DNA of 64,000 nucleotides from Amphiscolops sp. MND2022 (Eukaryota): assembly GCA_964187785.1 (NCBI GenBank), contig OZ076409.1, forward strand, positions 23,314,001 through 23,378,000, given 5' to 3'. The notes under the pieces are model-generated. The model ran no database searches. It saw only the letters and a program-made list of their open reading frames with translations, and was not told the DNA's origin. The position numbers and the translations under genes are program-made. Shown piece by piece: positions 1 through 46,790 of this stretch (its first letter is position 1; every line of letters starts with the position of its first letter).

Positions 1-3000
1 CGATTTTTTTTTCGTAGTTTTCAGTCTGTTTTCCGCTGATACATTTGAAAGCTCAGATTTTTTTCGTAGTTTTCAGTCTGTGTTTCGCTGTTATATTTGA
101 AAGTTCAGATTTGTTTTCGTGGTTTTCACTCTGTTTTCCGCTCATATTTTCGAAAGTTCAAATTTTTTACGTAGTTTTCAGTCTGTTTTCCGCTGATATA
201 TTTGAAATATCAGATTTTTTCGTGGTTTTCATTCTGTTTTCCGCTGATACATTTGAAAGTTCAGTTTTTTTGTGATTTTCAGTCTGTTTTCCTCTGATAT
301 ATTTGAAAGTTCAGATTTTTTTCGTAGTTTTCAGTTTGTTTTCCGCTGATATAATTGAAAGTTCAGATTTTTTTTGTGGTTTTCGGTCTAATATATTTGA
401 AAATTCAGGTTTGTTTTCGTGGTTTTCAGTCTGTTTTCCGCTGAGATATTTGAAAGTTCAGATATTTTTTGTAGTTTTCAGTCTGTTTTTCGCTGATGAA
501 TTTGAAAGTTCAGATTTGTTTTGTGGTTTTGGGTCAAATATATTTGAAAGTTCAGGTTTGATTTCGTGGTTTTCATTCTGTTTTCCGCTGATATATTTGA
601 AAGTTCAGATTTTTTTCGTAGTTTTCATTCTGTTTTCCGCTGATATATTTGAAAGTTCAGATTTTTTTGTCGTTTTCGGTCTAATATATTTGAAACTTCA
701 GATTTGTTTTCGTGGTTTTCAGTCTGTTTTCCACTGATATATATGAAAGTTCAGATTTGATTTCGTGGTTTTCAATCTGTTTTCCGCTGATATATTTGAA
801 AGTTCAGATTTTTTTCGTAGTTTTCATTCTGTTTTCCGCTGATATATTTGAAAGTTCAGATTTTTTTTGTCGTTTTCGGTCTAATATATTTGAAACTTCA
901 GATTTGTTTTCGTGGTTTTCAGTCTGTTTTGCACTGATATATATGAAAGTTCAGTTTTTTTGTGATTTTCAGTCTGTTTTCCGCTGATATATTTGAAAGT
1001 TCAGATTTTTTGGTGGTTTTCGGTCTAATATATTCGAAAGTTCAGATTTGTTTTCGTGGTTTTCAGTCTGTTTTCCGCTGATATATTTGAAAGTTCAGAT
1101 TTTTTTCGTAGTTTTCAGTCTGTTTTCCGCTGATATATTTGAAAGTTCAGATTTTTTTCGTAATTTTCAGTCTGTTTTCCGCTGATATATTTGAAAGTTC
1201 AGATTTTTTTGTGGTTTTTGGTCTAATATATTTGAAAGTTCAGATTTGTTTTCGTGGTTTTCAGTCTGTTTTCCGCTGATATCTTTGAAAGTTCAGATTT
1301 TTTTTCGTAGTTTTTAGACTGTTTTCCGCTGATACATTTGAAAACTCAGATTTTTTTCGTAGTTTTCAGTCTGTGTTCCGCTGTTATATTTGAAAGTTCA
1401 GATTAGTTTTCGTTGTTTTCAGTCTGTTTTCCGCTTATATTTTTGAAAGTTCAGATTTTTTTCGTAGTTTTCAGTCTGTTTTCTGCTGATATATTTGAAA
1501 GTTCAGATTTTTTCGTGGTTTTCAGTCTGTTTTCCGCTGATATATTTGAAATTTCAGATTTATTTTGTGATTTTCAGTCTGTTTTCCTCTGATATATTTG
1601 AAAGTTCAGATTTTTTTTCGTAGTTTTTAGTCTGTTTTCCGCTGATATATTTGAAAGTTCAGATATTTTTGTAGTTTTCAGTCTGTTTTTGGCTGATGAG
1701 TTTGAAAGTTCAGATTTGTTTTGTGGTTTTCGGTAAAATATATTTGAAAGTTCAGATTTGATTTCGTGGTTTTCAATCTGTTTTCCGCTGATATATTTGA
1801 AAGTTCAGATTTTTTTCGTAGTTTTCATTCTGTTTTCCGCTGATATATTTGAAAGTTCAGATTTTTTTTGTCGTTTTCGGTCTAATATATTTGAAACTTC
1901 AGATTTGTTTTCGTGGTTTTCAGTCTGTTTTCCACTGATATATATGAAAGTTCAGTTTTTTTGTGATTTTCAGTCTGTTTTCCGCTGATATATTTGAAAG
2001 TTCAGATTTCTTTTCGTAGTTTTTAGTCTGTTTTCCGCTGATATATTTGAAAGTTCAGATTTTTTGGTGGTTTTCGGTCTAATATATTCGAAAGTTCAGA
2101 TTTGTTGTCGTGGTTTTCAGTCTGTTTTCCGCTGATATATTTGAAAGTTCAGATTTTTTTTCGTAGTTTTCAGTCTGTTTTCCGCTGATACATTTGAAAG
2201 CTCAGATTTTTTTCGTAGTTTTCAGTCTGTGTTCCGCTGTTATATTTGAAAGTTCAGATTAGTTTTCGTTGTTTTCAGTCTGTTTTCCGCTGATATTTTT
2301 GAAAGTTCAGATTTTTTTCGTAGTTTTCAGTCTGTTTTCCGCTGATATATTTGAAAGTTCAGATTTTTTTCGTAATTTTCAGTCTGTTTTCCGCTGATAT
2401 ATTTGAAAGTTCAGATTTTTTTTCGTAGTTTTCAGTCTGTTTTCCGCTGATACATTTGAAAGCTCAGATTTTTTTCGTAGTTTTCAGTCTGTGTTCCGCT
2501 GTTATATTTGAAAGTTCAGATTAGTTTTCGTTGTTTTCAGTCTGTTTTCCGCTGATATTTTTGAAAGTTCAGATTTTTTTCGTAGTTTTCAGTCTGTTTT
2601 CCGCTGATATATTTGAAAGTTCAGATTTTTTCGTGGTTTTCAGTCTGTTTTCCGCTGATATATTTGAAAGTTCAGATTTTTTTTGTGATTTTCAGTCTGT
2701 TTTCCTCTGATATATTTGAAAGTTCAGGTTTTTTTTCGTAGTTTTCAGTTTGTTTTCCGCTGATATATTTGATAGTTCAGATTTTTTTGTGATTTTCGGT
2801 CTAATATATTTGAACATTCAGATTTGTTTTCGTGGTTTTCAGTCAGTTTTCCGCTGATGAAATTGGAAGTTCAGATTTGTTTTGTGGTTTTCGGTCAAAT
2901 ATATTTGAAAATTCAGATTTGATTTCGTGGTTTTCAATCTGTTTTCCGCTGATATATTTGAAAGTTCAGATTTTTTTCGTAGTTTTCAGTCTGTTTTCCG

Positions 3001-3913
3001 CTGATATATTTGAAAGTTCAGATTTTTTGGTGGTTTTCGGTCTAATATATTCGAAAGTTCAGATTTGTTTTCGTGGTTTTCAGTCTGTTTTCCGCTGATA
3101 TATTTGAAAGTTCAGATTTTTTTTCGTAGTTTTCAGTCTGTTTTCCGCTGATATATTTGAAAGTTCAGATTTTTTCCGTAGTTTTCAGTCTGTTTTCCGC
3201 TGATATATTTGAAAGTTCAGATTTTTTTGTGGTTTTCGGTCTAATATATTTGAAAGTTCAGATTTGTTTTCGTGGTTTTCAGTCTGTTTTCCGCTGATAT
3301 CTTTGAAAGTTCAGATTTTTTTTCGTAGTTTTCAGTCTGTTTTCCGCTGATACATTTGAAAGCTCAGATTTTTTTCGTAGTTTTCAGTCTGTGTTCCGCT
3401 GTTATATTTGAAAGTTCAGATTTGTTTTCGTGGTTTTCAGTCTGTTTTCCGCTGATGTTTTTGAAAGTTCAGATTTTTTTCGTAGTTTTCAGTCTGTTTT
3501 CTGCTGATATATTTGAAAGTTCAGATTTTTTCGTGGTTTTCAGTCTGTTTTCCGCTGATATGTTTGAAAGTTCAGATTTTTTTTGTGATTTTCAGTCTGT
3601 TTTCCTCTGATATATTTGAAAGTTCAGATTTTTTTTTCGTAGTTTTCAGTTTGTTTTCCGCTGACATATTTGAAAGTTCAGATTTTTTTTGTGATTTTCG
3701 GTCTATTATATTTGAAAACTCAGATTTGTTTTCGTGGTTTTCAGTCTGTTTTCCGCTGATGAATTTGGAAGTTCAGGTTTGTTTTGTGGTTTTCGGTCAA
3801 ATATATTTGAAAATTCAGATTTGATTTCGTGGTTTTCAATCTGTTTTCCGCTGATATATTTGAAAGTTCAGATTTTTTTCGTAGTTTTCAGTCTGTTTTC
3901 CGCTGATATATTT

Positions 3914-4023
3914 CAAATATATATATTTCAGATATATATTTTCAGATATATATTTCAGATTATATTATTTCAGATATATATTTTCAGATATATATTTGAT
4001 ATATTTCAAATAACTTTCAAGTT
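3914..4023. other. ~110-bp low-complexity insertion into a monomer, made of (TTTCAGATATATA)-like iterations and inverted monomer fragments (copy 1)
   Basis: The normal GATATATTT|GAAAG junction is interrupted by CAAATATATATATTTCAGATATATATTTTCAGATATATATTTCAGATTATATTATTTCAGATATATATTTTCAGATATATATTTGATATATTTCAAATAACTTTCAAGTT. Confidence 0.95.
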
Positions 4024-6439
4024 GAAAGTTCAGATTTTTTTGTGGTTTTCGGTCTAATATATTTGAAACTTCAGATTTGTTTTCGTGGTTTTCAGTCTGT
4101 TTTCCGCTGATATATTTGAAAGTTCAGATTTTTTCGTAGTTTTCAGTCTGTTTTCCGCTGATATATTTGAAAGTTCGGATTTGTTTTCGTGGTTTTCAGT
4201 CTGTTTTCCGCTGATATTTTTGAAAAATCAGATTTCTTTCGTAGTTTTCAGTCTATTTTCCGCTGATATATTTGAAAGTTCAGATTTTTTTAGTAGTTTT
4301 CAGTCTGTTTTCCGCTGATATATTTGAAAGTTCAAATTTTTTTGTGATTTTCAGTCTGTGTTCCGCTGATATATTTGAAAGTTCAGATTTTTTTTCGTAG
4401 TTTTCAGTTTGTTTTCCGCTGATGAATTTGAAAGTTCAGATTTTTTTGGGGTTTTCGGTCTAATATATTTGAAAATTCAGATATGTTTTCGTGGTTTTCA
4501 GTCTGTTTTCCGCTGATATATTTGAAAGTTCAGATTTTTTTCGTAGTTTTCAGTCTGTTTTCCGCTGATGAATTTGAAAGTTCAGATTTGTTTTGTGGTT
4601 TTCGGTCTAATATATATGAAAGTTCAGATTTGTTTTCGTGGTTTTCAATCTGTTTCCGCTGATATATTTGACAGTTCAGATTTGTTTTCGTGGTTTTCAG
4701 TCTGTTTTCCGCTGATATATTTGAAAGTTCAGATTTTTTTCGTAGTTTTCAGTCTGTTTTCCGCTGATATATTTGAAAGTTCAGATTTGTTTTCGTAGTT
4801 TTCAGTCTGTTTTCCGCTGATATATTTGAAAGTTCGGATTTGTTTTCGTGGTTTTCAGTCTGTTTTCCGCTGATATTTTTGAAAAATCAGATTTCTTTCG
4901 TAGTTTTCAGTCTATTTTCCGCTGATATATTTGAAAGTTCAGATTTTTTTAGTAGTTTTCAGTCTGTTTTCCGCTGATATATTTGAAAGTTCAAATTTTT
5001 TTGTGATTTTCAGTCTGTGTTCCGCTGATATATTTGAAAGTTCAGATTTTTTTTCGTAGTTTTCAGTTTGTTTTCCGCTGATGAATTTGAAAGTTCAGAT
5101 TTTTTTGTGGTTTTCGGTCTAATATATTTGAAAATTCAGATATGTTTTCGTGGTTTTCAGTCTGTTTTCCGCTGATATATTTGAAAGTTCAGATTTTTTT
5201 CGTAGTTTTCAGTCTGTTTTCCGCTGATGAATTTGAAAGTTCAGATTTGTTTTGTGGTTTTCGGTCTAATATATATGAAAGTTCAGATTTGTTTTCGTGG
5301 TTTTCAATCTGTTTCCGCTGATATATTTGACAGTTCAGATTTGTTTTCGTGGTTTTCAGTCTGTTTTCCGCTGATATATTTGAAAGTTCAGATTTTTTTC
5401 GTAGTTTTCAGTCTGTTTTCCGCTGATATATTTGAAAGTTCAGATTTGTTTTCGTGGTTTTCAGTCTGTTTTCCGCTGATATTTTTGAAAAATCAGATTT
5501 CTTTCGTAGTTTTCAGTCTGTTTTCCGCTGATATATTTGAAAGTTCAGATTTTTTTTAGTAGTTTTCAGTCTGTTTTCCGCTGATATAATTGAAAGTTCA
5601 GATTTTTTTCGTAGTTTTCAGTCTGTTTTCCGCTGATATATTTGAAAGTTCAGATTTTTTTGTGGTTTTCGGTCTAATATATTTGAAACTTCAGATTTGT
5701 TTTCGTAGTTTTCAGTCTGTTTTCCGCTGATATATTTGAAAGTTCAGATTTGTTTTCGTGGTTTTCAGTCTGTTTTCCGCTGATATTTTTGAAAAATCAG
5801 ATTTCTTTCGTAGTTTTCAGTCTGTTTTCCGCTGATATATTTGAAAGTTCAGATTTTTTTCGTAGTTTTCAGTCTGTTTTCCGCTAATATATTTGAAAGT
5901 TCAGATTTTTTTGTGGTTTTCGGTCTAATATATTTGAAACTTCAGATTTGTTTTCGTGGTTTTCAGTCTGTTTTCCGCTGATATATTTGAAAGTTGAGAT
6001 TTTTTTCGTAGTTTTCAGTCTGTTTTCCGCTGATATATTTGAAAGTTCAGATTTGTTTTCGTGGTTTTCAGTCTGTTTTCCGCTGATATTTTTGAAAAAT
6101 CAGATTTCTTTCGTAGTTTTCAGTCTGTTTTCCGCTGATATATTTGAAAGTTCAGATTTTTTTAATAGTTTTCAGTTTGTTTTCCGCTGACATATTTGAA
6201 AGTTCAGATTTTTTTTGTGATTTTCGGTCTATTATATTTGAAAACTCAGATTTGTTTTCGTGGTTTTCAGTCTGTTTTCCGCTGATGAATTTGGAAGTTC
6301 AGGTTTGTTTTGTGGTTTTCGGTCAAATATATTTGAAAATTCAGATTTGATTTCGTGGTTTTCAATCTGTTTTCCGCTGATATATTTGAAAGTTCAGATT
6401 TTTTTCGTAGTTTTCAGTCTGTTTTCCGCTGATATATTT

Positions 6440-6549
6440 CAAATATATATATTTCAGATATATATTTTCAGATATATATTTCAGATTATATTATTTCAGA
6501 TATATATTTTCAGATATATATTTGATATATTTCAAATAACTTTCAAGTT
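6440..6549. other. ~110-bp low-complexity insertion (copy 2, identical to 3914-4023)
   Basis: Same sequence at offset 2526. ORF-track entries 3734..4057 and 6260..6583 translate identically. Confidence 0.95.
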
Positions 6550-8914
6550 GAAAGTTCAGATTTTTTTGTGGTTTTCGGTCTAATATATTTGAAACTTCAG
6601 ATTTGTTTTCGTGGTTTTCAGTCTGTTTTCCGCTGATATATTTGAAAGTTCAGATTTTTTTCGTAGTTTTCAGTCTGTTTTCCGCTGATATATTTGAAAG
6701 TTCGGATTTGTTTTCGTGGTTTTCAGTCTGTTTTCCGCTGATATTTTTGAAAAATCAGATTTCTTTCGTAGTTTTCAGTCTATTTTCCGCTGATATATTT
6801 GAAAGTTCAGATTTTTTTAGTAGTTTTCAGTCTGTTTTCCGCTGATATATTTGAAAGTTCAAATTTTTTTGTGATTTTCAGTCTGTGTTCCGCTGATATA
6901 TTTGAAAGTTCAGATTTTTTTTCGTAGTTTTCAGTTTGTTTTCCGCTGATGAATTTGAAAGTTCAGATTTTTTTGTGGTTTTCGGTCTAATATATTTGAA
7001 AATTCAGATATGTTTTCGTGGTTTTCAGTCTGTTTTCCGCTGATATATTTGAAAGTTCAGATTTTTTTCGTAGTTTTCAGTCTGTTTTCCGCTGATGAAT
7101 TTGAAAGTTCAGATTTGTTTTGTGGTTTTCGGTCTAATATATATGAAAGTTCAGATTTGTTTTCGTGGTTTTCAATCTGTTTCCGCTGATATATTTGACA
7201 GTTCAGATTTGTTTTCGTGGTTTTCAGTCTGTTTTCCGCTGATATATTTGAAAGTTCAGATTTTTTTCGTAGTTTTCAGTCTGTTTTCCGCTGATATATT
7301 TGAAAGTTCAGATTTGTTTTCGTGGTTTTCAGTCTGTTTTCCGCTGATATTTTTGAAAAATCAGATTTCTTTCGTAGTTTTCAGTCTGTTTTCCGCTGAT
7401 ATATTTGAAAGTTCAGATTTTTTTTAGTAGTTTTCAGTCTGTTTTCCGCTGATATAATTGAAAGTTCAGATTTTTTTCGTAGTTTTCAGTCTGTTTTCCG
7501 CTGATATATTTGAAAGTTCAGATTTTTTTGTGGTTTTCGGTCTAATATATTTGAAACTTCAGATTTGTTTTCGTAGTTTTCAGTCTGTTTTCCGCTGATA
7601 TATTTGAAAGTTCAGATTTGTTTTCGTGGTTTTCAGTCTGTTTTCCGCTGATATTTTTGAAAAATCAGATTTCTTTCGTAGTTTTTAGTCTGTTTTCCGC
7701 TGATATATTTGAAAGTTCAGATTTTTTTCGTAGTTTTCAGTCTGTTTTCCGCTAATATATTTGAAAGTTCAGATTTTTTTGTGGTTTTCGGTCTAATATA
7801 TTTGAAACTTCAGATTTGTTTTCGTGGTTTTCAGTCTGTTTTCCGCTGATATATTTGAAAGTTGAGATTTTTTTCGTAGTTTTCAGTCTGTTTTCCGCTG
7901 ATATATTTGAAAGTTCAGATTTGTTTTCGTGGTTTTCAGTCTGTTTTCCGCTGATATTTTTGAAAAATCAGATTTCTTTCGTAGTTTTCAGTCTGTTTTC
8001 CGCTGATATATTTGAAAGTTCAGATTTTTTTAATAGTTTTCAGTCTGTTTTCCGCTGATATATTTGAAAGTTCAAATTTTTTTGTGATTTTCAGTCTGTG
8101 TTCCGCTGATATATTTGAAAGTTCAGATTTTTTTTCGTAGTTTTCAGTTTGTTTTCCGCTGATGAATTTGAAAGTTCAGATTTTTTTGTGGTTTTCGGTC
8201 TAATATATTTGAAAATTCAGATATGTTTTCGTGGTTTTCAGTCTGTTTTCCGCTGATATATTTGAAAGTTCAGATTTTTTTCGTAGTTTTCAGTCTGTTT
8301 TCCGCTGATGAATTTGAAAGTTCAGATTTGTTTTGTGGTTTTCGGTCTAATATATTTGAAAGTTCAGATTTGTTTTTGTGGTTTTCAATCTGTTTCCGCT
8401 GATATATTTGACAGTTCAGATTTGTTTTCGTGGTTTTCAGTCTGTTTTCCGCTGATATATTTGAAAGTTCAGATTTTTTTCGTAGTTTTCAGTCTGTTTT
8501 CCGCTGATATATTCGAAAGTTCAGATTTGTTTTCGTGGTTTTCAGTCTGTTTTCCGCTGTTATTTTTGAAAAATCAGATTTCTTTCGTAGTTTTCAGTCT
8601 GTTTTCCGCTGATATATTTGAAAGTTCAGATTTTTTTTAGTAGTTTTCAGTCTGTTTTCCGCTGATATATTTGAAAGTTCAAATTTTTTTGTGATTTTCA
8701 GTCTGTGATCCGCTGATATATTTGAAAGTTCAGATTTTTTTTTCGTAGTTTTCAGTTTGTCTTCCGCTGATGAATTTGAAAGTTCAGATTTTTTTGTGGT
8801 TTTCGGTCTAATATTATTGAAAATTCAGATATGTTTTCGTGGTTTTCAGTCTGTTTTCCGCTGATATATTTGAAAGTTCAGATTTTTTTCGTAGTTTTCA
8901 GTCTGTTTTCCGCT

Positions 8915-9352
8915 GATGAATTTGAAAGTTCAGATTTGTTTTGTGGTTTTCGGTCTAATATATTTGAAAGTTCAGATTTGTTTTCGTGGTTTTCAATCTG
9001 TTTCCGCTGATATATTTGACAGTTCAGATTTTTTTCGTAGTTTTCAGTCTGTTTTCCGCTGATGAATTTGAAAGTTCAGATTTGTTTTGTGGTTTTCGGT
9101 CTAATATATTTGAAAGTTCAGATTTGTTTTCGTGGTTTTCAATCTGTTTCCGCTGATATATTTGACAGTTCAGATTTTTTTCGTAGTTTTCAGTCTGTTT
9201 TCCGCTGATGAATTTGAAAGTTCAGATTTGTTTTGTGGTTTTCGGTCTAATATATTTGAAAGTTCAGATTTGTTTTCGTGGTTTTCAATCTGTTTCCGCT
9301 GATATATTTGACAGTTCAGATTTGTTTTCGTGGTTTTCAGTCTGTTTTCCGC
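8915..9352 (+). repeat. 146-bp three-monomer higher-order repeat (42+52+52), about three tandem copies
   Basis: GATGAATTT marker at 8915, 9061 and 9207, each followed by an S monomer, a CAATCTGTTTCC monomer and a GACAGTTC monomer. Confidence 0.9.
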
Positions 9353-10364
9353 TGATATATTTGAAAGTTCAGATTTTTTTCGTAGTTTTCAGTCTGTTTT
9401 CCGCTGATATATTTGAAAGTTCAGATTTGTTTTCGTGGTTTTCAGTCTGTTTTCCGCTGATATTTTTGAAAAATCAGATTTCTTTCGTAGTTTTCAGTCT
9501 GTTTTCCGCTGATATATTTGAAAGTTTAGATTTTTTTAGTAGTTTTCAGTCTGTTTTCCGCTGATATATTTGAAAGTTCAAATTTTTTTGTGATTTTCAG
9601 TCTGTGTTCCGCTGATATATTTGAAAGTTCAGATTTTTTTTCGTAGTTTTCAGTTTGGTTTCCGCTGATGAATTTGAAAGTTCAGATTTTTTGTGGTTTT
9701 CGGTCTAATATATTTGAAAATTCAGATATGTTTTCGTGGTTTTCAGTCTGTTTTCCGCTGATATATTTGAAAGTTCAGATTTTTTTCGTAGTTTTCAGTC
9801 TGTTTTCCGCTGATGAATTTGAAAGTTCAGATTTGTTTTGTGGTTTTCGGTCTAATATATTTGAAAGTTCAGATTTGTTTTCGTGGTTTTCAATCTGTTT
9901 CCGCTGATATATTTGACAGTTCAGATTTTTTTCGTAGTTTTCAGTCTGTTTTCCGCTGATGAATTTGAAAGTTCAGATTTGTTTTCGTGGTTTTCAGTCT
10001 GTTTTCCGCTGATATTTTTGAAAAATCAGATTTCTTTCGTAGTTTTCAGTCTGTTTTCCGCTGATATATTTGAAAGTTCAGATTTTTTTAGTAGTTTTCA
10101 GTCTGTTTTCCGCTGATATATTTGAAAGTTCAAATTTTTTTGTGATTTTCAGTCTGTGTTCCGCTGATATATTTGAAAGTTCAGATTTTTTTTCGTAGTT
10201 TTCAGTTTGTTTTCCGCTGATGAATTTGAAAGTTCAGATTTTTTTGTGGTTTTCGGTCTAAAATATTTGAAAATTCAGATATGTTTTCGTGGTTTTCAGT
10301 CTGTTTTCCGCTGATATATTTGAAAGTTCAGATTTTTTTCGTAGTTTTCAGTCTGTTTTCCGCT

Positions 10365-10802
10365 GATGAATTTGAAAGTTCAGATTTGTTTTGTGGTTTT
10401 CGGTCTAATATATTTGAAAGTTCAGATTTGTTTTCGTGGTTTTCAATCTGTTTCCGCTGATATATTTGACAGTTCAGATTTTTTTCGTAGTTTTCAGTCT
10501 GTTTTCCGCTGATGAATTTGAAAGTTCAGGTTTGTTTTGTGGTTTTCGGTCTAATATATTTGAAAGTTCAGATTTGTTTTCGTGGTTTTCAATCTGTTTC
10601 CGCTGATATATTTGACAGTTCAGATTTTTTTCGTAGTTTTCAGTCTGTTTTCCGCTGATGAATTTGAAAGTTCAGATTTGTTTTGTGGTTTTCGGTCTAA
10701 TATATTTGAAAGTTCAGGTTTGTTTTCGTGGTTTTCAATCTGTTTCCGCTGATATATTTGACAGTTCAGATTTGTTTTCGTGGTTTTCAGTCTGTTTTCC
10801 GC
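10365..10802 (+). repeat. 146-bp three-monomer higher-order repeat, about three tandem copies
   Basis: GATGAATTT marker at 10365, 10511 and 10657 with the same monomer order. Confidence 0.9.
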
Positions 10803-11989
10803 TGATATATTTAAAAGTTCAGATTTTTTCGTAGTTTTCAGTCTGTTTTCCGCTGATATATTTGAAAATTCAGATTTGTTTTTGTGGTTTTCAGTCTGTT
10901 TTCCGCTGATATTTTTGAAAAATCAGATTTCTTTCGTAATTTTCAGTCTGTTTTCCGCTGATATATTTGAAAGTTCAGATTTTTTTTAGTAGTTTTCAGT
11001 CTGTTTTCCGCTGATATATTTAAAAGTTCAAATTTTTTTGTGATTTTCAGTCTGTGTTCCGCTGATATATTTGAAAGTTCAGATTTTTTTTCGTAGTTTT
11101 CAGTTTGTTTTCCGCTGATGAATTTGAAAGTTCAGATTTTTTTGTGGTTTTTGGTCTAATATATTTGAAAATTCAGATATGTTTTCGTGGTTTTCAGTCT
11201 GTTTTCCGCTGATATATTTGAAAGTTCAGATTTTTTTCGTAGTTTTCAGTCTGCTTTCCGCTGATGAATTTGAAAGTTCAGATTTGTTTTGTGGTTTTCG
11301 GTCTAATATATTTGAAAGTTCAGATTTGTTTTCGTGGTTTTCAATCTGTTTCCGCTGATATATTTGTCAGTTCAGATTTTTTTCGTAGTTTTCAGTCTGT
11401 TTTCCGCTGATGAATTTGAAAGTTAAGATTTGTTTTGTGGTTTTCGGTCTAATATATTTGAAAGTTCAGATTTGTTTTCGTGGTTTTCAATCTGTTTCCG
11501 CTGATATATTTGACAGTTCAGATTTTTTTTGTAGTTTTCAGTCTGTTTTCCTCTGATATATTTGACAGTTCAGATTTTTTTCGTAGTTTTCAGTCTGTTT
11601 TCCGCTGATATATTTGAAAGTTCAGATTTGTTTTCGTGGTTTTCAGTCTGTTTTCCGCTGATATTTTTGAAAAATCAGATTTCTTTCGTAGTTTTCAGTC
11701 TGTTTTCCGCTGATATATTTGAAAGTTCAGATTTTGTTTAGTAGTTTTCAGTCTGTTTTCCGCTGATATATTTGAAAGTTCAAATTTTTTTGTGATTTTC
11801 AGTCTGTGTTCCGCTGATATATTTGAAAGTTCAGATTTGTTTTCGTGGTTTTCAGTCTGTTTTCCGCTGATATTTTTGAAAAATCAGATTTCTTTCGTAG
11901 TTTTCAGTCTGTTTTCCGCTGATACATTTGAAAGTTCAGATTTTTTTAGTAGTTTTCAGTCTGTTTTCCGCTGATATATTTGAAAGTTC

Positions 11990-14900
11990 AATTTTTTTTG
12001 TGAATTTCAGTCTGTGTTCCGCTGATATATTTGAAAGTTCAGATTTTTTTCGTAGTTTTCAGTTTGTTTTCCGCTGATATATTTGAAAGTTCAGATTTTT
12101 TTGTGGTTTTTGGTCTAATATATTTGAAAATTCAGATATGTTTTTGTGGTTTTCAGTCTGTTTTCCGCTGATATATTTGAAAGTTCAGATTTTTTCGTAG
12201 TTTTCAGTCTGTTTTCCGCTGATGAATTTGAAAGTTCAGATTTGTTTTGTGGTTTTCGGTCTAATATATTTGAAAGTTCAGATTTGTTTTCGTGGTTTTC
12301 AATCTGTTTCCGCTGATATATTTGACAGTTCAGATTTTTTTCGTAGTTTTCAGTCTGTTTTCCTCTGATATATTTGAAAGTTCAGATTTTTTTTGTGGTT
12401 TTCGGTCTATTATATTTGAAACTTCAGATTTGTTTTCGTGGTTTTCAGTCTGTTTTCCGCTGATATATTTGAAAGTTCAGATTTGTTTTCGTGGTTTTCA
12501 GTCTGTTTTCCGCTGATATTTTTGAAAGTTCAGATTTTTTTCGTGGTTTTCAGTCTGTTTTCCGCTGATATATTTGAAAGTTCAGACTTTTTTTGTGATT
12601 TTCAGTCTGTTTTCCGCTGATATATTTGAAAGTTCAGATTTTTTTTAGTAGTTTTCAGTCTGTTTTCCGCTGACATATTTGAAAGTTCAGATTTTTTTGT
12701 GATTTTCAGTCTGTGTTCCGCTGATATATTTGAAAGTTCAGATTTTTTTTCGTAGTTTTCAGTTTGTTTTCCGCTGATATATTTGAAAGTTCAGATTTTT
12801 TTGTGGTTTTCGGTCTAATATATTTGAAAATTCAGATATGTTTTCGTGGTTTTCAGTCTGTTTTCCGCTGATATATTTGAAAGTTCAGATTTTTTCGTAG
12901 TTTTCAGTCTGTTTTCCGCTGATGAATTTGAAAGTTCAGATTTGTTTTGTGGTTTTCGGTCTAATATATTTGAAAGTTCAGATTTGTTTTCGTGGTTTTC
13001 AATCTGTTTCCGCTGATATATTTGACAGTTCAGATTTTTTTCGTGGTTTTCAGTCTGTTTTCCTCTGATATATTTGAAAGTTCAGATTTTTTTTGTGGTT
13101 TTCGGTCTATTATATTTGAAACTTCAGATTTGTTTTCGTGGTTTTCAGTCTGTTTTCCGCTGATATATTTGAAAGTTCAGATTTGTTTTCGTGGTTTTCA
13201 GTCTGTTTTCCGCTGATATTTTTGAAAGTTCAGATTTTTTTCGTGGTTTTCAGTCTGTTTTCCGCTGATATATTTGAAAGTTCAGACTTTTTTTGTGATT
13301 TTCAGTCTGTTTTCCGCTGATATATTTGAAAGTTCAGATTTTTTTTAGTAGTTTTCAGTCTGTTTTCCGCTGACATATTTGAAAGTTCAGATTTTTTTGT
13401 GATTTTCAGTCTGTGTTCCGCTGATATATTTGAAAGATCAGATTTTTTTTCGTAGTTTTCAGTTTGTTTTCCGCTGATATATTTGAAAGTTCAGATTTGT
13501 TTTGTGGTTTTCGGTCTAATATATTTGAAAGTTCAGATTTGTTTTCGTGGTTTTCAATCTGTTTCCGCTGATATATTTGACATTTCAGATTTTTTTTGCG
13601 GTTTTCAGTCTGTTTTCCGCTGATATGTTTGAAAGTTCAGACTTTTTTTGTAGTTTTCAGTCTGTTTTCCGCTGATATATTTGAAAGTTCAGATTTTTTT
13701 AGTAGTTTTCAGTCTGTTTTCCGCTGATATATTTGAAAGTTCAAATTTTTTTGTGATTTTCAGTCTGTGTTCCGCTGATATATTTGAAAGTTCAGATTTT
13801 TTTTCGTAGTTTTCAGTTTGTTTTCCGCTGATGAATTTGAAAGTTCAGATTTTTTTGTGGTTTTCGGTCTAATATATTTGAAAACTCAGATATGTTTTCG
13901 TGGTTTTCAGTCTGTTTTCCGCTGATATATTTGAAAGTTCAGATTTTTTTCGTAGTTTTCAGTCTGTTTTCCGCTGATGAATTTGAAAGATCAGATTTGT
14001 TTTGTGGTTTTCGGTCTAATATATTTGAAAGTTCAGATTTGTTTTCGTGGTTTTCAATCTGTTTCCGCTGATATATTTGACATTTCAGATTTTTTTCGTG
14101 GTTTTCAGTCTGATTTCCGCTGATATGTTTGAAAGTTCAGACTTTTTTTGTAGTTTTCAGTCTGTTTTCCGCTGATGAATTTGAAAGATCAGATTTGTTT
14201 TGTGGTTTTCGGTCTAATATATTTGAAAGTTCAGATTTGTTTTCGTGGTTTTCAATCTGTTTCCGCTGATATATTTGACAGTTCAGATTTTTTTTGTAGT
14301 TTTCAGTCTGTTTTCCTCTGATATATTTGTAAGTTCAGATTTTTTTGTGGTTTTCGTTCTATTATATTTGAAACTTCAAGTTTGTTTTCGTGGTTTTCAG
14401 TCTGTTTTCCGCTGATATATTTGAAAGTTCAGATTTTTTTCGTAGTTTTCAGTTTGTTTTCCGCTGATATATTTGAAAGTTCAGAGTTTTTTGTGGTTTT
14501 CGGTCTAATATATTTGAAAATTCAGATATGTTTTTGTGGTTTTCAGTCTGTTTTCCGCTGATATATTTGAAAGTTCAGATTTTTTCGTAGTTTTCAGTCT
14601 GTTTTCCGCTGATGAATTTGAAAGTTCAGATTTGTTTTGTGGTTTTCGGTCGAATATATTTGAAAGTTCAGATTTGTTTTCGTGGTTTTCAATCTGTTTC
14701 CGCTGATATATTTGACAGTTCAGATTTTTTTCGTAGTTTTCAGTCTGTTTTCCTCTGATATATTTGAAAGTTCAGATTTTTTTTGTGGTTTTCGGTCTGT
14801 TATATTTGAAACTTCAGATTTGTTTTCGTGGTTTTCAGTCTGTTTTCCGCTGATATATTTGAAAGTTCAGATTTGTTTTCGTGGTTTTCAGTCTGTTTTC

Positions 14901-16550
14901 CGCTGATATTTTTGAAAGTTCAGATTTTTTTCGTGGTTTTCAGTCTGTTTTCCGCTGATATATTTGAAAGTTCAGACTTTTTTTGTGATTTTCAGTCTGT
15001 TTTCCGCTGATATATTTGAAAGTTCAGATTTTTTTTAGTAGTTTTCAGTCTGTTTTCCGCTGACATATTTGAAAGTTCAGATTTTTTTGTGATTTTCAGT
15101 CTGTGTTCCGCTGATATATTTGAAAGTTCAGATTTTTTTTGTAGTTTTCAGTTTGTTTTCCGCTGATATATTTGAAAGTTCAGATTTTTTTGTGGTTTTC
15201 GGTCTAATATATTTGAAAATTCAGATATGTTTTCGTGGTTTTCAGTCTGTTTTCCGCTGATATATTTGAAAGTTCAGATTTTTTCGTAGTTTTCAGTCTG
15301 TTTTCCGCTGATGAATTTGAAAGTTCAGATTTGTTTTGTGGTTTTCGGTCTAATATATTTGAAAGTTCAGATTTGTTTTCGTGGTTTTCAATCTGTTTCC
15401 GCTGATATATTTGACAGTTCAGATTTTTTTCGTGGTTTTCAGTCTGTTTTCCTCTGATATATTTGAAAGTTCAGATTTTTTTTGTGGTTTTTGGTCTATT
15501 ATATTTGAAACTTCAGATTTGTTTTCGTGGTTTTCAGTCTGTTTTCCGCTGATATATTTGAAAGTTCAGATTTGTTTTCGTGGTTTTCAGTCTGTTTTCC
15601 GCTGATATTTTTGAAAGTTCAGATTTTTTTCGTGGTTTTCAGTCTGTTTTCCGCTGATATATTTGAAAGTTCAGACTTTTTTTGTGATTTTCAGTCTGTT
15701 TTCCGCTGATATATTTGAAAGTTCAGATTTTTTTTAGTAGTTTTCAGTCTGTTTTCCGCTGACATATTTGAAACTTCAGATTTTTTTGTGATTTTCAGTC
15801 TGTGTTCCGCTGATATATTTGAAAGATCAGATTTTTTTTCGTAGTTTTCAGTTTGTTTTCCGCTGATATATTTAAAAGTTCAGATTTGTTTTGTGGTTTT
15901 CGGTCTAATATATTTGAAAGTTCAGATTTGTTTTCGTAGTTTTCAATCTGTTTCCGCTGATATATTTGACATTTCAGATTTTTTTCGCGGTTTTCAGTCT
16001 GTTTTCCGCTGATATGTTTGAAAGTTCAGACTTTTTTTGTAGTTTTCAGTCTGTTTTCCGCTGATATATTTGAAAGTTCAGATTTTTTTTAGTAGTTTTC
16101 AGTCTGTTTTCCGCTGATATATTTGAAAGTTCAAATTTTTTTTGTGATTTTCAGTCTGTGTTCCGCTGGTATATTTGAAAGTTCAGATTTTTTTTCGTAG
16201 TTTTCAGTTTGTTTTCCGCTGATGAACTTGAAAGTTCAGATTTTTTTGTGGTTTTCGGTCTAATATATTTGAAAATTCAGATATGTTTTCGTGGTTTTCA
16301 GTCTGTTTTCCGCTGATATATTTGAAAGTTCAGATTTTTTTCGTAGTTTTCAGTCTGTTTTCCGCTGATGAATTTGAAAGATCAGATTTGTTTTGTGGTT
16401 TTCGGTCTAATATATTTGAAAGTTCAGATTTGTTTTCGTGGTTTTCAATCTGTTTCCGCTGATATATTTGACATTTCAGATTTTTTTCGTGGTTTTCAGT
16501 CTGATTTCCGCTGATATGTTTGAAAGTTCAGACTTTTTTTGTAGTTTTCA
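11990..16550 (+). repeat. ~700-bp units duplicated in tandem, then re-duplicated at ~2.39-kb offset
   Basis: Near-identical ORF translations at 12292/12992 (700), 14682/15381 (699) and 12292/14682 (2390). Rare GAAAGATCAG and GACATTTCAG variants are shared between the two halves. Confidence 0.75.
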
Positions 16551-19500
16551 GTCTGTTTTCCGCTGATATATTTGAAAGTTCAGATTTTTTTTCGTAGTTT
16601 TCAGTTTGTTTTCCGCTGATGAATTTGAAAGTTCAGATTTTTTTGTGGTTTTCGGTCTAATATATTTGAAAATTCAGATATGTTTTCGTGGTTTTCAGTC
16701 TGTTTTCCGCTGATATATTTGAAAGTTCAGATTTTTTTCGTAGTTTTCAGTCTGTTTTCCGCTGATGAATTTGAAAGTTCAGATTTGTTTTGTGGTTTTC
16801 GGTCTAATATATTTGAAAGTTCAGATTTGTTTTCGTGGTTTTCAATCTGTTTCCGCTGATATATTTGACAGTTCAGATTTTTTTCGTAGTTTTCAGTCTG
16901 TTTTCCGCTGATGAATTTGAAAGTTCAGATTTGTTTTGTGGTTTTCGGTCTAATATATTTGAAAGTTCAGATTTGTTTTCGTGGTTTTCAATCTGTTTCC
17001 GCTGATATTTTTGACAGTTCAGATTTTTTTTGTAGTTTTCAGTCTGTTTTCCTCTGATATATTTGACAGTTCAGATTTTTTTCGTAGTTTTCAGTCTGTT
17101 TTCCGCTGATATATTTGAAAGTTCAGATTTGTTTTCGTGGTTTTCAGTCTGTTTTCCGCTGATATTTTTGAAAAATCAGATTTCTTTCGTAGTTTTCAGT
17201 CTGTTTTCCGCTGATATATTTGAAAGTTCAGATTTTTTTTAGTAGTTTTCAGTCTGTTTTCCGCTGATATATTTGAAAGTTCAAATTTTTTTGTGATTTT
17301 CAGTCTGTGTTCCGCTGATATATTTGAAAGTTCAGATTTTTTTTCGTAGTTTTCAGTTTGTTTTCCGCTGATATATTTGAAAGTTCAGATTTTTTTGTGG
17401 TTTTCGGTCTAATATATTTGAAAATTCAGATATGTTTTCGTGGTTTTCAGTCTGTTTTCCGCTGATATATTTGAAAGTTCAGATTTTTTTCGTAGTTTTC
17501 AGTCTGTTTTCCGCTGATGAATTTGAAAGTTCAGATTTGTTTTGTGGTTTTCGGTCTAATATATTTGAAAGTTCAGATTTGTTTTCGTGGTTTTCAATCT
17601 GTTTCCGCTGATATATTTGACAGTTCAGATTTTTTTCGTAGTTTTCAGTCTGTTTTCCGCTGATGAATTTGAAAGTTCAGATTTGTTTTGTGGTTTTCGG
17701 TCTAATATATTTGAAAGTTCAGACTTGTTTTCGTGGTTTTCAATCTGTTTCCGCTGATATATTTGACAGTTCAGATTTTTTTTTGTAGTTTTCAGTCTGT
17801 TTTCCTCTTATATATTTGAAAGTTCAGATTTTTTTTGTGGTTTCCGTTCTATTATATTTGAAACTTCAAATTTGTTTTCGTGGTTTTCAGTCTGTTTTCC
17901 GCTGATGAACTTGAAAGTTCAGATTTTTTTGTGGTTTTCGGTCTAATATATTTGAAAATTCAGATATGTTTTCGTGGTTTTCAGTCTGTTTTCCGCTGAT
18001 ATATTTGAAAGTTCAGATTTTTTTCGTAGTTTTCAGTCTGTTTTCCGCTGATGAATTTGAAAGATCAGATTTGTTTTGTGGTTTTCGGTCTAATATATTT
18101 GAAAGTTCAGATTTGTTTTCGTGGTTTTCAATCTGTTTCCGCTGATATATTTGACATTTCAGATTTTTTTCGTGGTTTTCAGTCTGATTTCCGCTGATAT
18201 GTTTGAAAGTTCAGACTTTTTTTGTAGTTTTCAGTCTGTTTTCCGCTGATATATTTGAAAGTTCAGATTTTTTTTCGTAGTTTTCAGTTTGTTTTCCGCT
18301 GATGAATTTGAAAGTTCAGATTTTTTTGTGGTTTTCGGTCTAATATATTTGAAAATTCAGATATGTTTTCGTGGTTTTCAGTCTGTTTTCCGCTGATATA
18401 TTTGAAAGTTCAGATTTTTTTCGTAGTTTTCAGTCTGTTTTCCGCTGATGAATTTGAAAGTTCAGATTTGTTTTGTGGTTTTCGGTCTAATATATTTGAA
18501 AGTTCAGATTTGTTTTCGTGGTTTTCAATCTGTTTCCGCTGATATATTTGACAGTTCAGATTTTTTTCGTAGTTTTCAGTCTGTTTTCCGCTGATGAATT
18601 TGAAAGTTCAGATTTGTTTTGTGGTTTTCGGTCTAATATATTTGAAAGTTCAGATTTGTTTTCGTGGTTTTCAATCTGTTTCCGCTGATATTTTTGACAG
18701 TTCAGATTTTTTTTGTAGTTTTCAGTCTGTTTTCCTCTGATATATTTGACAGTTCAGATTTTTTTCGTAGTTTTCAGTCTGTTTTCCGCTGATATATTTG
18801 AAAGTTCAGATTTGTTTTCGTGGTTTTCAGTCTGTTTTCCGCTGATATTTTTGAAAAATCAGATTTCTTTCGTAGTTTTCAGTCTGTTTTCCGCTGATAT
18901 ATTTGAAAGTTCAGATTTTTTTTAGTAGTTTTCAGTCTGTTTTCCGCTGATATATTTGAAAGTTCAAATTTTTTTGTGATTTTCAGTCTGTGTTCCGCTG
19001 ATATATTTGAAAGTTCAGATTTTTTTTCGTAGTTTTCAGTTTGTTTTCCGCTGATATATTTGAAAGTTCAGATTTTTTTGTGGTTTTCGGTCTAATATAT
19101 TTGAAAATTCAGATATGTTTTCGTGGTTTTCAGTCTGTTTTCCGCTGATATATTTGAAAGTTCAGATTTTTTTCGTAGTTTTCAGTCTGTTTTCCGCTGA
19201 TGAATTTGAAAGTTCAGATTTGTTTTGTGGTTTTCGGTCTAATATATTTGAAAGTTCAGATTTGTTTTCGTGGTTTTCAATCTGTTTCCGCTGATATATT
19301 TGACAGTTCAGATTTTTTTCGTAGTTTTCAGTCTGTTTTCCGCTGATGAATTTGAAAGTTCAGATTTGTTTTGTGGTTTTCGGTCTAATATATTTGAAAG
19401 TTCAGACTTGTTTTCGTGGTTTTCAATCTGTTTCCGCTGATATATTTGACAGTTCAGATTTTTTTTTGTAGTTTTCAGTCTGTTTTCCTCTTATATATTT

Positions 19501-19580
19501 GAAAGTTCAGATTTTTTTTGTGGTTTCCGTTCTATTATATTTGAAACTTCAAATTTGTTTTCGTGGTTTTCAGTCTGTTT
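16210..19580 (+). repeat. Tandem duplication, 1683-bp unit
   Basis: GATGAACTTG at 16221 and 17904; CCTCTTATAT at 17804 and 19487. Confidence 0.88.
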
Positions 19581-22500
19581 TCCGCTGATATATTTGAAAG
19601 TTCAGATTTTTTTTCGTAGTTTTCAGTCTGTTTTCCGCTGATATATTTGAAAGTTCAGATTTGTTTTCGTGGTTTTCAGTCTGTTTTCCGCTGATATTTT
19701 TGAAAAATCAGATTTCTTTCGTAGTTTTCAGTCTGTTTTCCGCTGATATATTTGAAAGTTCAGATTTTTTTCGTAGTTTTCAGTTTGTTTTCCGCTGATA
19801 TATTTGAAAGTTCAGATTTTTTTGTGGTTTTCGGTCTAATATATTTGAAAATTCAGATATGTTTTCGTGGTTTTCAGTCTGTTTTCCGCTGATATATTTG
19901 AAAGTTCAGATTTTTTCGTAGTTTTCAGTCTGTTTTCCGCTGATGAATTTGAAAGTTCAGATTTGTTTTGTGGTTTTCGGTCTAATATATTTGAAAGTTC
20001 AGATTTGTTTTCGTGGTTTTCAATCTGTTTCCGCTGATATATTTGACAGTTCAGATTTTTTTCGTGGTTTTCAGTCTGTTTTCCTCTGATATATTTGAAA
20101 GTTCAGATTTTTTTTGTGGTTTTCGGTCTATTATATTTGAAACTTCAGATTTGTTTTCGTGGTTTTCAGTCTGTTTTCCGCTGATATATTTGAAAGTTCA
20201 GATTTGTTTTCGTGGTTTTCAGTCTGTTTTCCGCTGATATATTTGAAAGTTCAGATTTTTTTTGTGATTTTCAGTCTGTTTTCCGCTGATATATTTGAAA
20301 GTTCAGATTTTTATAGTAGTTTTCAGTCTGTTTTCCGCTGACATATTTGAAAGTTCAGATTTTTTTGTGATTTTCAGTCTGTGTTCCGCTGATATATTTG
20401 AAAGTTCAGTTTTTTTTTCGTAGTTTTCAGTTTGTTTTCCGCTGATATATTTGAAAGTTCAGATTTGTTTTGTGGTTTTCGGTCTAATATATTTGAAAGT
20501 TCAGATTTGTTTTCGTGGTTTTCAGTCTGTTTTCCGCTGATATATTTGAAAGTTCAGATTTTTTTTCGTAGTTTTCAGTCTGTTTTCCGCTGATATATTT
20601 GAAAGTTCAGATTTGTTTTCGTGGTTTTCAGTCTGTTTTCCGCTGATATTTTTGAAAAATCAGATTTCTTTCGTAGTTTTCAGTCTGTTTTCCGCTGATA
20701 TATTTGAAAGTTCAGATTTTTTTTAGTAGTTTTCAGTCTGTTTTCCGCTGATATTTTTGAAAGTTCAAATTTTTTTGTGATTTTCAGTCTGTGTTCCGCT
20801 GATATATTTGAAAGTTCAGATTTTTTTTCGTAGTTTTCAGTTTGTTTTCCGCTGATATATTTGAAAGTTCAGATTTTTTTGTGGTTTTCGGTCTAATATA
20901 TTTGAAAATTCAGATATGTTTTCGTGGTTTTCAGTCTGTTTTCCGCTGATATATTTGAAAGTTCAGATTTTTTCGTAGTTTTCAGTCTGTTTTCCGCTGA
21001 TGAATTTGAAAGTTCAGATTTGTTTTGTGGTTTTCGGTCTAATATATTTGAAAGTTCAGATTTGTTTTCGTGGTTTTCAATCTGTTTCCGCTGATATATT
21101 TGACAGTTCAGATTTTTTTCGTGGTTTTCAGTCTGTTTTCCTCTGATATATTTGAAAGTTCAGATTTTTTTTGTGGTTTTCGGTCTATTATATTTGAAAC
21201 TTCAGATTTGTTTTCGTGGTTTTCAGTCTGTTTTCCGCTGATATATTTGAAAGTTCAGATTTGTTTTCGTGGTTTTCAGTCTGTTTTCCGCTGATATTTT
21301 TGAAAGTTCAGATTTTTTTGTGGTTTTCAGTCTGTTTTCCGCTGATATATTTGAAAGTTCAGACTTTTTTTGTGATTTTCAGTCTGTTTTCCGCTGATAT
21401 ATTTGAAAGTTCAGATTTTTATAGTAGTTTTCAGTCTGTTTTCCGCTGACATATTTGAAAGTTCAGATTTTTTTGTGATTTTCAGTCTGTGTTCCGCTGA
21501 TATATTTGAAAGTTCAGTTTTTTTTTCGTAGTTTTCAGTTTGTTTTCCGCTGATATATTTGAAAGTTCAGATTTGTTTTGTGGTTTTCGGTCTAATATAT
21601 TTGAAAGTTCAGATTTGTTTTCGTGGTTTTCAATCTGTTTCCGCTGATATATTTGACATTTCAGATTTTTTTCGTGGTTTTCAGTCTGTTTTCTGCTGAT
21701 ATGTTTGAAAGTTCAGACTTTTTTTGTAGTTTTCAGTCTGTTTTCCGCTGATATATTTGAAAGTTCAGATTTTTTTGTGGTTTTCGGTCTAATATATTTG
21801 AAAGTTCAGATTTGTTTTCGTGGTTTTCAATCTGTTTCCGCTGATATATTTGACAGTTCAGATTTTTTTCGTAGTTTTCAGTCTGTGTTCCTCTGATATA
21901 TTTGAAAGTTCAGATTTTTTTTGTGGTTTCCGGTCTATTATATTTGAAACTTCAGATTTGTTTTCGTGGTTTTCAGTCTGTTTTCCGCTGATATATTTGA
22001 AAGTTCACATTTGTTTTCGTGGTTTTCAGTCTGTTTTCTGCTAATATTTTTGAAAGTTCAGATTTATTTCGTGGTTTTCAGTCTGTTTTCCGCTGATATA
22101 TTTGAAAGTTCAGACTTATTTTGTGATTTTCAGTCTGTTTTCCGCTGATATATTTGAAAGTTCAGATTTTTTTCAGTAGTTTTCAGTCTGTTTTCCGCTG
22201 ACATATTTGAAAGTTCAGATTTTTTGTGATTTTCAGTCTGTGTTCCGCTGATATATTTGAAAATTCAGATTTTTTTTCGTAGTTTTCAGTTTGTTTTCCG
22301 CTGATATATTTGAAAGTTCAGATTTTTTTTGTGGTTTTCGGTCTAATATATTTGAAAATTCAGATTTGTTTTCGTGGTTTTCAGTCTGTTTTCCGCTGAT
22401 ATATTTGAAAGTTCAGATTTGTTTTGTGGTTTTCGGTCTAATATATTTGAAAGTTCAGATTTGTTTTCGTGGTTTTCAATAAGTTTCCGCTGATATATTT

Positions 22501-28500: not shown

Positions 28501-28869
28501 ATTTGAAAGTTCAGACTTTTTTTGTGATTTTCAGTTTGTTTTCCGCTGATATATTTGAAAGTTCAGATTTGTTTTCGTGGTTTTCAGTCTGTTTTCCGCT
28601 GATATATTTGAAAGTTCAGATTTGTTTTCGTAGTTTTCAGTCTGTTTTCTGCTGATATTTTTGAAAGTTCAGATTTTTTTCGTAGTTTTCAGTCTGTTTT
28701 CCGCTGATATATTTGAAAGTTCAGATTTGTTTCGTGGTTTTCAGTCTGTTTTCCGCTGATATATTTGAAAGTTCAAATTTTTTGTGATTTTCAGTCTGTT
28801 TTCCGCTGATATATTTGAAAGTTCAGATTTTTTGTGGTTTTCAGTCTGTTTTCCGCTGATACATTTGAA

Positions 28870-30260: not shown

Positions 30261-30289
30261 ATTTGAAAGTTCAGATTTTTTTTAGTTTT

Positions 30290-31850: not shown

Positions 31851-32079
31851 AGTTTTGTTTTCGTGGTTTTTAGTCTGTTTTCCGATGATAAATTTGAAAG
31901 TTCAGATTTTTTTCGTTGTTTTCAGTCTGTTTTCTGCTGATATATTTGAAAGTTCAGATTTGTTTTCGTGGTTTTCAGTCTGTTTTCCGCTGACATTTTT
32001 GAAAGTACAGATTTCTTTCGTAGTTTTCAGTCTGTTTTCCGCTGATATATTTGAAAGTTCAGATTTTTTTCGTGGTTTT

Positions 32080-46500: not shown

Positions 46501-46790
46501 CAGTCTGTTTTCCGCTGATAAATTTGGAAGTTCAGATTTGTTCTCGTGGTTTTCAGTCTGTTTTCCGCTGATATATTTGAAAGTTCAGGATTTTCTTCGA
46601 AGTTTTCAGTCTGTTTTCCGCTGATATATTTGAAAGTTCAGATTTTTTTTTGTGGTTTTCGGTCTAATATATTTGAAAGTTCAGATTTGTTTTTGTGGTT
46701 TTCAGTCTGTTTTCTGCTGATGTATTTGAAAATTCAGATTTTTTTCGTAGTTTTCCGTCTGTTTTCCGCTGAAATGTTGAAAGTTCAGAT
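40600..46790 (+). repeat. Series of related ~0.5-1.2-kb blocks marked by GTTCTCGTGAGATTCAG / GTTCACGTGAGATTCAG
   Basis: Marker near 41251, 42240, 42731, 43763, 44652 and 45843. ORF pairs 40797/41786 (989), 44762/45953 and 45355/46546 (1191). Confidence 0.82.

Follow-up and report, generated by a model that had tools for sequence, protein, structure and literature searches.

Our analysis of a 64,000-nucleotide stretch of DNA (hereafter, the window) suggests, with a probability that we put at roughly 0.6, that a 110-bp insertion within a satellite array is the heritable scar of iterative, microhomology-primed end joining of the TMEJ/SD-MMEJ type. The insertion is templated locally, in both orientations and in many pieces, is enriched in A and T, and was later duplicated together with the surrounding array, while the break, the polymerase, the order of the steps and the strand that was extended are what we infer. 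We regard the insertion as a neutral scar and propose no function for it.

The setting in which the insertion lies is the following:

1..64000, + strand: satellite array, delimited by monomer splitting, in which 52/53-bp monomers are mixed with 41/42-bp monomers in a single orientation

This tandem array fills the entire 64 kb (period 52, 1,279 copies according to TRF run on the window), with a GC content of 30–32% along the window and a constant strand skew. When monomers were delimited by a 13-nt anchor, 1,274 anchors yielded 1,273 intervals, 1,270 of which measure 39–57 bp, one 101 bp and two 162 bp; the 101-bp interval consists of two monomers between which the anchor has diverged, and both 162-bp intervals (at 3860 and 6386) are made of a 52-bp monomer plus the same 110 bp. 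These intervals bear out an earlier note on this DNA, made from the sequence alone, according to which the insertion and its duplicate are the sole non-monomer DNA in the 64 kb. Long monomers (50–54 bp, n = 1,005) are irregularly interspersed with short ones (39–43 bp, n = 256), no reverse-oriented monomer occurs in window positions 1–64000, and 10-mers reverse-complementary to common array words are found in the window only at four palindrome variants, described below, and at the two insertions. Such a structure points to a eukaryote-type satellite; a 15-nt monomer motif and its reverse complement had no match in the literature text searched.

Several features of the array deserve mention in their own right. 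Within the 52/53-bp monomer, a segment of about 11 bp that is single in the 41/42-bp monomer is nearly duplicated, so that a short duplication or deletion derived one class from the other, and four 57-bp monomers (57169, 57767, 58517, and 60315) contain a tandem duplication of 4 bp, on two different backgrounds. The window contains 125 exact repeat pairs of at least 200 bp, the longest being 1,697 bp at an offset of 1,683, and recent local duplications (e.g., 16210–17906, 32075–32772, and 50403–51386) make the array a patchwork devoid of any fixed higher-order period. The last monomer base is G in 23 monomers beyond 41 kb (41287–63742) and C in 16 monomers between 16 and 39 kb (16227–38194), and these regional variants mark sub-domains of the array. 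Finally, at four places (centers 541, 2902, 3804, and 6330) a single-base change, rare among the short monomers, makes the monomer junction a perfect 14-bp palindrome, the expected product of template switching at a quasi-palindrome; each insertion copy has one such variant about 110 bp upstream.

The two copies of the insertion and the duplications that surround them are:

3912..4021, no strand assigned: locally templated insertion of 110 bp at a monomer junction (left end at 3912 or 3914, a 2-nt ambiguity due to two T)
6438..6547, no strand assigned: second, identical copy of the insertion
3640..8044, + strand: tandem duplication carrying the scar, with a unit of 1,868 bp (about 3640–6176 and 6166–8044)
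4167–4825 and 4826–5484: inner duplication of 658/659 bp in copy 1

The insertion announced at 3914–4030 is thus real, with an extent of 3912–4021, positions 4022–4030 being ordinary monomer. The two blocks of the large duplication differ by the 658-bp inner duplication in copy 1, by one substitution (5818/7686) and by the length of one T run, and one further substitution (4449) lies inside the inner duplication. The second insertion copy stems from this young 1,868-bp tandem duplication. As the scar is present in both blocks, it predates this duplication, and the order of events runs from the scar to the 1,868-bp duplication and then to the 658-bp duplication.

To trace the origin of the inserted bases, we rejoined the flanks in silico and matched the insertion to 60 bp on each side, on both strands, with 5,000 dinucleotide shuffles of the insertion and 5,000 shuffles of the monomer flank as nulls. 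Matches of at least 8 nt cover 78 of the 110 bases, a value that none of 5,000 shuffles attained (15.5 ± 10.0 with the insertion shuffled, 3.6 ± 9.3 with the flank shuffled). Matches of at least 7 nt cover 108 of 110, again with 0 of 5,000 shuffles as high (29.6 ± 11.6 and 10.3 ± 14.7, respectively), in agreement with the proposal that the insertion is built almost wholly from its own flanks; since the insertion repeats itself, these covered bases are not independent of one another. Weaker evidence, when taken alone, comes from the longest inverted match, which has 11 nt inside the insertion and was reached by 95 of 5,000 insertion shuffles and 4 of 5,000 flank shuffles. As little as 15 bp per side suffices to account for 102 of the 110 bases with matches of at least 7 nt and for 109 with 5-mers, and all the templates of at least 7 nt within 26 bp fall into a 23-nt core that spans −8 to +15 around the junction:

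3904..3911, + strand: template core, left part (−8 to −1)
4022..4036, + strand: template core, right part (+1 to +15), which supplies the opening piece of each repeat unit

A 30-nt window placed at the insertion's own monomer phase covers 107 of 110 bases with 6-mers, against 32 at the opposite phase, but 107 is reached at 11 of the 52 phases, so that this result is consistent with local templating and is no proof of it. More generally, any monomer of a periodic array is a possible template, which makes the notion of flank partly definitional here. Both orientations contribute, with 84 forward and 73 reverse bases covered at 7-mers and 55 and 28 at 8-mers.

Parsed from the flanks only, the insertion resolves at a minimum into 17 pieces of 1–11 nt; if it may also template itself, 11 pieces suffice on the top strand and 13 on the bottom strand, and pieces of 14, 15, and 31 nt appear. 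Consecutive pieces overlap mostly by 0–3 nt, with 0–1 untemplated bases; in the flank-only parse of the top strand, 4 of the 16 templated pieces have no overlap, and AT-rich pieces also overlap by chance. The AT content of the insertion is 85% versus 71% in the 100 flanking bases, a contrast drawn from a single event. In the literature, templated insertions are defined by tracts of at least 5 nt, direct or inverted, typically taken from within 30 bp and AT-enriched; a round rarely exceeds 10 nt, and long inserts amount to several rounds (PMC7165422). With 10–17 templated pieces, and with flank-only pieces of 1–11 nt that agree with such short rounds, the insertion agrees in sequence with this operational definition of a templated insertion. 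The theta-type or template-switch signature put forward in the earlier note is therefore present (tracts of at least 5 nt, direct and inverted, near the site, AT-enriched), while a double-strand break healed by polymerase theta itself would be a step beyond that signature, with which the marks of MMBIR-type template switching (MMB-TI) overlap (PMC8421209).

Under the reading that we favor, a break, either two-ended or arising from a collapsed fork, would have occurred at the AT-rich TTT-G-AAA junction of two monomers and left 3′ tails able to pair by only 0–3 bases. A polymerase of low processivity would then have extended a tail by 3–11 nt on a template within about 15 bp, fallen off and primed again, the direct pieces being copied from the other end and the inverted ones from the same strand or from a fold-back. 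Cycling between right-flank and left-flank templates over at least 10 rounds would have generated five repeat units, until a stable join restored the monomer phase, and the repaired array would later have been copied by the 1,868-bp tandem duplication. Some points weigh against end joining: 110 bp is far above the typical 3–30 bp, the 31-nt self-copy is long for one round, and neither broken end would hold the intact junction that is spanned by one inverted piece of 12 nt. Moreover, complex inserts are also described in flies carrying the polymerase-theta mutant allele D5, the role of the enzyme being important but "not exclusive" (PMC2895639). Plain slippage was rejected as the sole cause, for it cannot yield inverted pieces.

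The inside of the insertion is dominated by two direct elements:

3926..3997, + strand: five imperfect units of 13–15 bp, read from the sequence
3997..4012, + strand: direct copy, 16 nt long, of the left junction just created (3905–3920), read from the sequence

About five units had been announced, and they are indeed found, starting at 3926, 3940, 3953, 3968, and 3982, the third being a variant. Their parse as TTTCAG fused with GATATAT fares less well: it is less economical, with a 1-nt overlap and a template some 20 nt upstream, than one in which each unit opens with TTCAGAT, matching 7 nt of the right flank (+8 to +14), and continues by a 3-nt overlap into GATATAT, which matches the end of the left flank. 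In unit 3, one further, eighth base of the right-flank template is matched. On the strength of these matches, the units would be better read as a priming cycle between the right and left flanks; it is also possible that the unit is a once-mutated copy of the first inverted piece. Positions 3924–3955 recur exactly at 3966–3997 (32 bp, period 42) with a 10-nt patchwork spacer in between, and this repeat may reflect either one long self-templated round or a later duplication. Downstream, 3990–3999 matches 10 nt across the intact junction, as though a correct join had been started and given up, and the new left junction is then copied again at 3997–4012. The recurrence of the junction stretch was seen in the earlier note (3998–4012 repeats 3906–3920), and it can be explained either by the scar being templated on itself or by two flank pieces with 3-nt overlaps.

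Do these units amount to a minisatellite in the making, as was claimed? Minisatellites have tandem units of 10–60 bp, and the tract agrees with this description (period 14, 6.6 copies, 86% matches). What such a claim further calls for is a later change in copy number, and here the two genomic copies are identical, so that no growth is seen; imperfect repeats are, besides, a known by-product inside such scars (PMC2895639). We hence do not retain the claim that the event seeded a nascent minisatellite. The only sense in which a minisatellite would have begun to grow is a two-stage history, compatible with iterative end joining, in which a scar of about 40–70 bp was later lengthened by slippage or by microhomology-mediated tandem duplication that made part of the units. 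The exact 32-bp repeat of period 42 and the 14-nt self-copy, which together cut the parse from 17 to 11 pieces, speak for it, and microhomology-mediated duplication is described as a common start of tandem repeats (bioRxiv 10.64898/2026.02.28.708716). Yet the 42-bp period is no full tandem copy (32 bp plus the patchwork spacer), the difference in unit 3 is explained by fresh priming on the right flank, and the two copies have stayed unchanged; we view this second stage as possible, if on the unlikely side.

A second family of explanations dispenses with end joining and invokes replicative template switching (MMBIR-type, or fork stalling and switching, with a polymerase zeta-like enzyme). A nascent strand would stall at the TTT-G-AAA quasi-palindrome, copy the opposite strand, switch repeatedly and resume in phase, possibly elsewhere in the array. 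Templated insertions usually, though not always, come with a loss of flanking DNA. No base is lost within the monomer at the insertion site, and the three uninterrupted paralogs of the upstream monomer (743, 1744, and 2905) are all followed by a 52-bp and a 41/42-bp monomer, the same diagnostic variant also lying downstream in two of the three, from which a clean insertion without loss was our first reading. That reading is weakened by a switch between sub-arrays: the paralog that best fits the left side (2958) keeps matching over offsets −11 to +3, and the one that best fits the right side (7709) over 0 to +12, which places the switch within three monomers (0 to +3) of the scar and makes a hidden deletion possible. 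These paralog alignments would allow for either a clean insertion or an in-phase deletion–insertion at the site. As a join of two sub-arrays, the scar stays below significance by similarity rank, switch score and cut position. The similarity rank across the insertion is 75 of 1,250 for copy 1 and 590 for copy 2; the switch score has a local peak at the insertion, yet it is matched by 176 of 1,262 boundaries when computed over 5 monomers and by 355 and 743 of 1,256 over 8; and the best cut falls exactly at the insertion for two of four paralogs, by a margin of one edit, these two being copies of each other.

Template switching draws support from this nearby change of sub-array, within monomers 0 to +3 of the site, even if a switch signal as high as this one is common in the array. 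It also has the advantage that intact parental strands directly supply the inverted 12-mer that spans the junction, and this inverted piece of 11–12 nt (3911–3922) agrees with the definition of MMB-TIs, inverted copies of at least 10 nt from within 100 bp that are ascribed in yeast to polymerase zeta (PMC8421209). According to the same source, MMB-TIs occur as germline variants with up to five templates, and its authors set long complex inserts apart from TMEJ. Against this, 10–17 pieces of 3–11 nt drawn from a 23-nt core exceed the five templates reported, and most bases are direct rather than inverted at both word lengths, which leads us to consider template switching without end joining unlikely.

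Both ends of the insertion carry a further signature, absent from the earlier note:

3906..3922, no strand assigned: left junction palindrome with 8-bp arms, centered on the single base 3914, in which 3911–3922 is a 12-nt inverted copy of the intact monomer junction
4012..4030, no strand assigned: right junction palindrome with 9-bp arms, centered on the single base 4021

Both junctions are perfect palindromes centered on one base, and among the 63,960 centers tested in the 64 kb, only four have arms of at least 8, all at the two insertion copies. The inverted pieces within them had been correctly spotted: the 12-nt copy of the junction, starting at 3911, occurs elsewhere in the window only at 6437, and the inverted piece of 9 nt is confined to 4012 and 6538. 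Inverted copying primed at the monomer's TTT-G-AAA automatically yields the left palindrome. Because its 12-nt template spans the intact junction, which neither broken end holds, a neighboring monomer (41–52 nt away), the sister strand or a tight fold-back is needed; the first part of the piece also has a 10-nt direct match at 3797–3806, in a rare variant. The right palindrome was not copied from the next downstream monomer (4063), as the base there differs. The region 3895–4040 has a more stable fold than all of 200 shuffles (z = −6.1), as expected from its composition, and the junction stretches folded alone are not significant (z = −0.7 and −1.6).

These palindromes raise the possibility that the broken ends were capped by hairpins, through excision by a hAT/RAG-type transposase or a nuclease acting at a fold-back, and that off-center opening left 8–9-nt P nucleotides with the gap filled by templated synthesis, a scenario that would replace only the first and last steps of iterative end joining. 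Palindromes with arms of at least 8 are confined to the insertions, and patchworks assembled at random from 6–12-nt pieces of the same 30 bp show both in 218 of 200,000 trials, although this null is crude and was devised after the pattern had been seen. Footprints of Ac/Ds are palindromes whose center is complementary to the base adjoining the element, and palindrome arms of up to 20 nt occur in yeast (PMC5873905). The left center obeys this footprint rule, 3914 being complementary to the base that follows in the monomer, which is G in 1,213 of 1,274 cases. The right one does not: 4021 is a G and would need a C before the right flank, where 1,200 of 1,274 monomers have a T and 16 a C, these 16 all lying from position 16,000 onward. 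The target-site duplication of hAT elements is 8 bp long. No remnant of such a duplication was found at the insertion, whose flanks overlap by 2–3 nt only (trimming could have removed it), nor any transposon remnant in the window. Polymerase theta, finally, performs snap-back synthesis that makes such tracts (PMC4912351), so that a transposase is not required, and inverted copying at TTT-G-AAA is enough for the left palindrome. Hairpin-capped ends are for these reasons a doubtful alternative.

A bolder synthesis, which we offer as speculative and rather improbable, is that the TTT-G-AAA quasi-palindrome, present in every monomer, is a built-in site of breakage and fold-back, and that both ends were capped by hairpins and opened, two different sub-arrays then being joined by a theta-type filler whose priming cycle between left and right wrote the five-unit repeat of 13–15 bp in one event. 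If this were true, end joining would take part, besides homologous exchange, in building the patchwork of satellites, and one repair event could found a new repeat that then spreads by array duplication.

Two further explanations carry much less weight. Palindromic ends are typical of fold-back chimeras, and those of the insertion fit a sequencing or assembly artefact of that kind (a chimeric or fold-back read). Such an artefact is very improbable, for the identical copies sit in blocks that differ by the 658-bp duplication, one substitution and one T-run length, and are thus not one read written twice; two falsely joined haplotypes would both carry the insertion, which would still be real; and the array has the same orientation on either side. 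That the insertion is a fragment of an independent repeat, a transposon or a telomere-type addition is scarcely credible, since 109 of its 110 bases are explained locally at 5–6 nt and its units contain little G on either strand, in contrast to telomerase repeats.

A scan of a metagenome collection with a 26-nt piece of the unit tract returned three loci, none of them with the satellite: L001 and L002, which are identical (19% GC), and L003 (48% GC), with two-unit matches to the insertion repeat at 301–326. They share only a low-complexity match of 26–29 nt with the tract and at most 9 nt with the monomer, and reflect either chance or small duplications that arose independently in these unrelated contigs.

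Templated insertions are well known, and another one is in itself unsurprising. Theta-type end joining marks natural genomes (PMC4490562; PMC11724358), with one natural case of 182 bp (PMC11707537), and POLQ acts at satellites (PMC9241439). Genome-wide tools for repair signatures are described as discarding repetitive variants (PMC11724358), however, and centromeric repeats are said to hide the repair mechanism (PMC11707537). The interest of the present scar is that it can be read base by base in repeat DNA, where such scars seldom are, and that it provides a unique marker to order the events of the array. Parsing non-monomer inserts in long-read satellite arrays could similarly give the frequency of end joining and that of two-sided palindromes. 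In the literature searched, with most subscription journals outside its scope, we found, judging by titles and the opening of abstracts, neither a parsed templated insertion within a satellite array nor the birth of a minisatellite by end joining.

With regard to known systems, the insertion looks like a clean new example of a known process, resembling a TMEJ/SD-MMEJ scar and agreeing with its sequence definition. Like the TINS of TMEJ (PMC7165422; PMC4490562; PMC4912351), it combines local pieces in both orientations, AT enrichment and multiple short rounds, the 0–3-nt overlaps between its pieces being possible counterparts of the 0–3-nt priming of TINS; it departs from typical ones by its 110 bp (scars are typically 3–30 bp, with insertions of up to 157 bp; PMC7165422), its at least 10 rounds, its satellite setting and its palindromes at both ends. 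In Drosophila, snap-back, loop-out and trans priming are described within 30 nt (PMC5728401), and junctions contain AT-rich inserts of 42–49 nt with imperfect repeats of flank pieces in both orientations (PMC2895639). The present insertion shares with these SD-MMEJ inserts its AT richness, its many imperfect repeats of 5–8 nt and a "minisatellite" look (PMC5728401; PMC2895639), while being natural, inherited, longer, and since copied by array duplication. An inverted copy of at least 10 nt within 100 bp likens it to MMB-TIs, which are germline and multi-template (PMC8421209), but its pieces are two to three times more numerous, each shorter, and mostly direct. The likeness to Ac/Ds (hAT) footprints (PMC5873905) concerns the left junction palindrome only, given that the rule fails at the right end, that the 8-bp duplication is missing and that about 90 bp of filler separate the two palindromes. 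The closest satellite parallel is maize CentC, for which alternative end joining has been proposed to explain array deletions and duplications, and in which one monomer carries a 40-nt insertion; that insertion is left unparsed in the text we draw on (PMC4806543), whereas the one described here can be traced piece by piece to the monomer junction.
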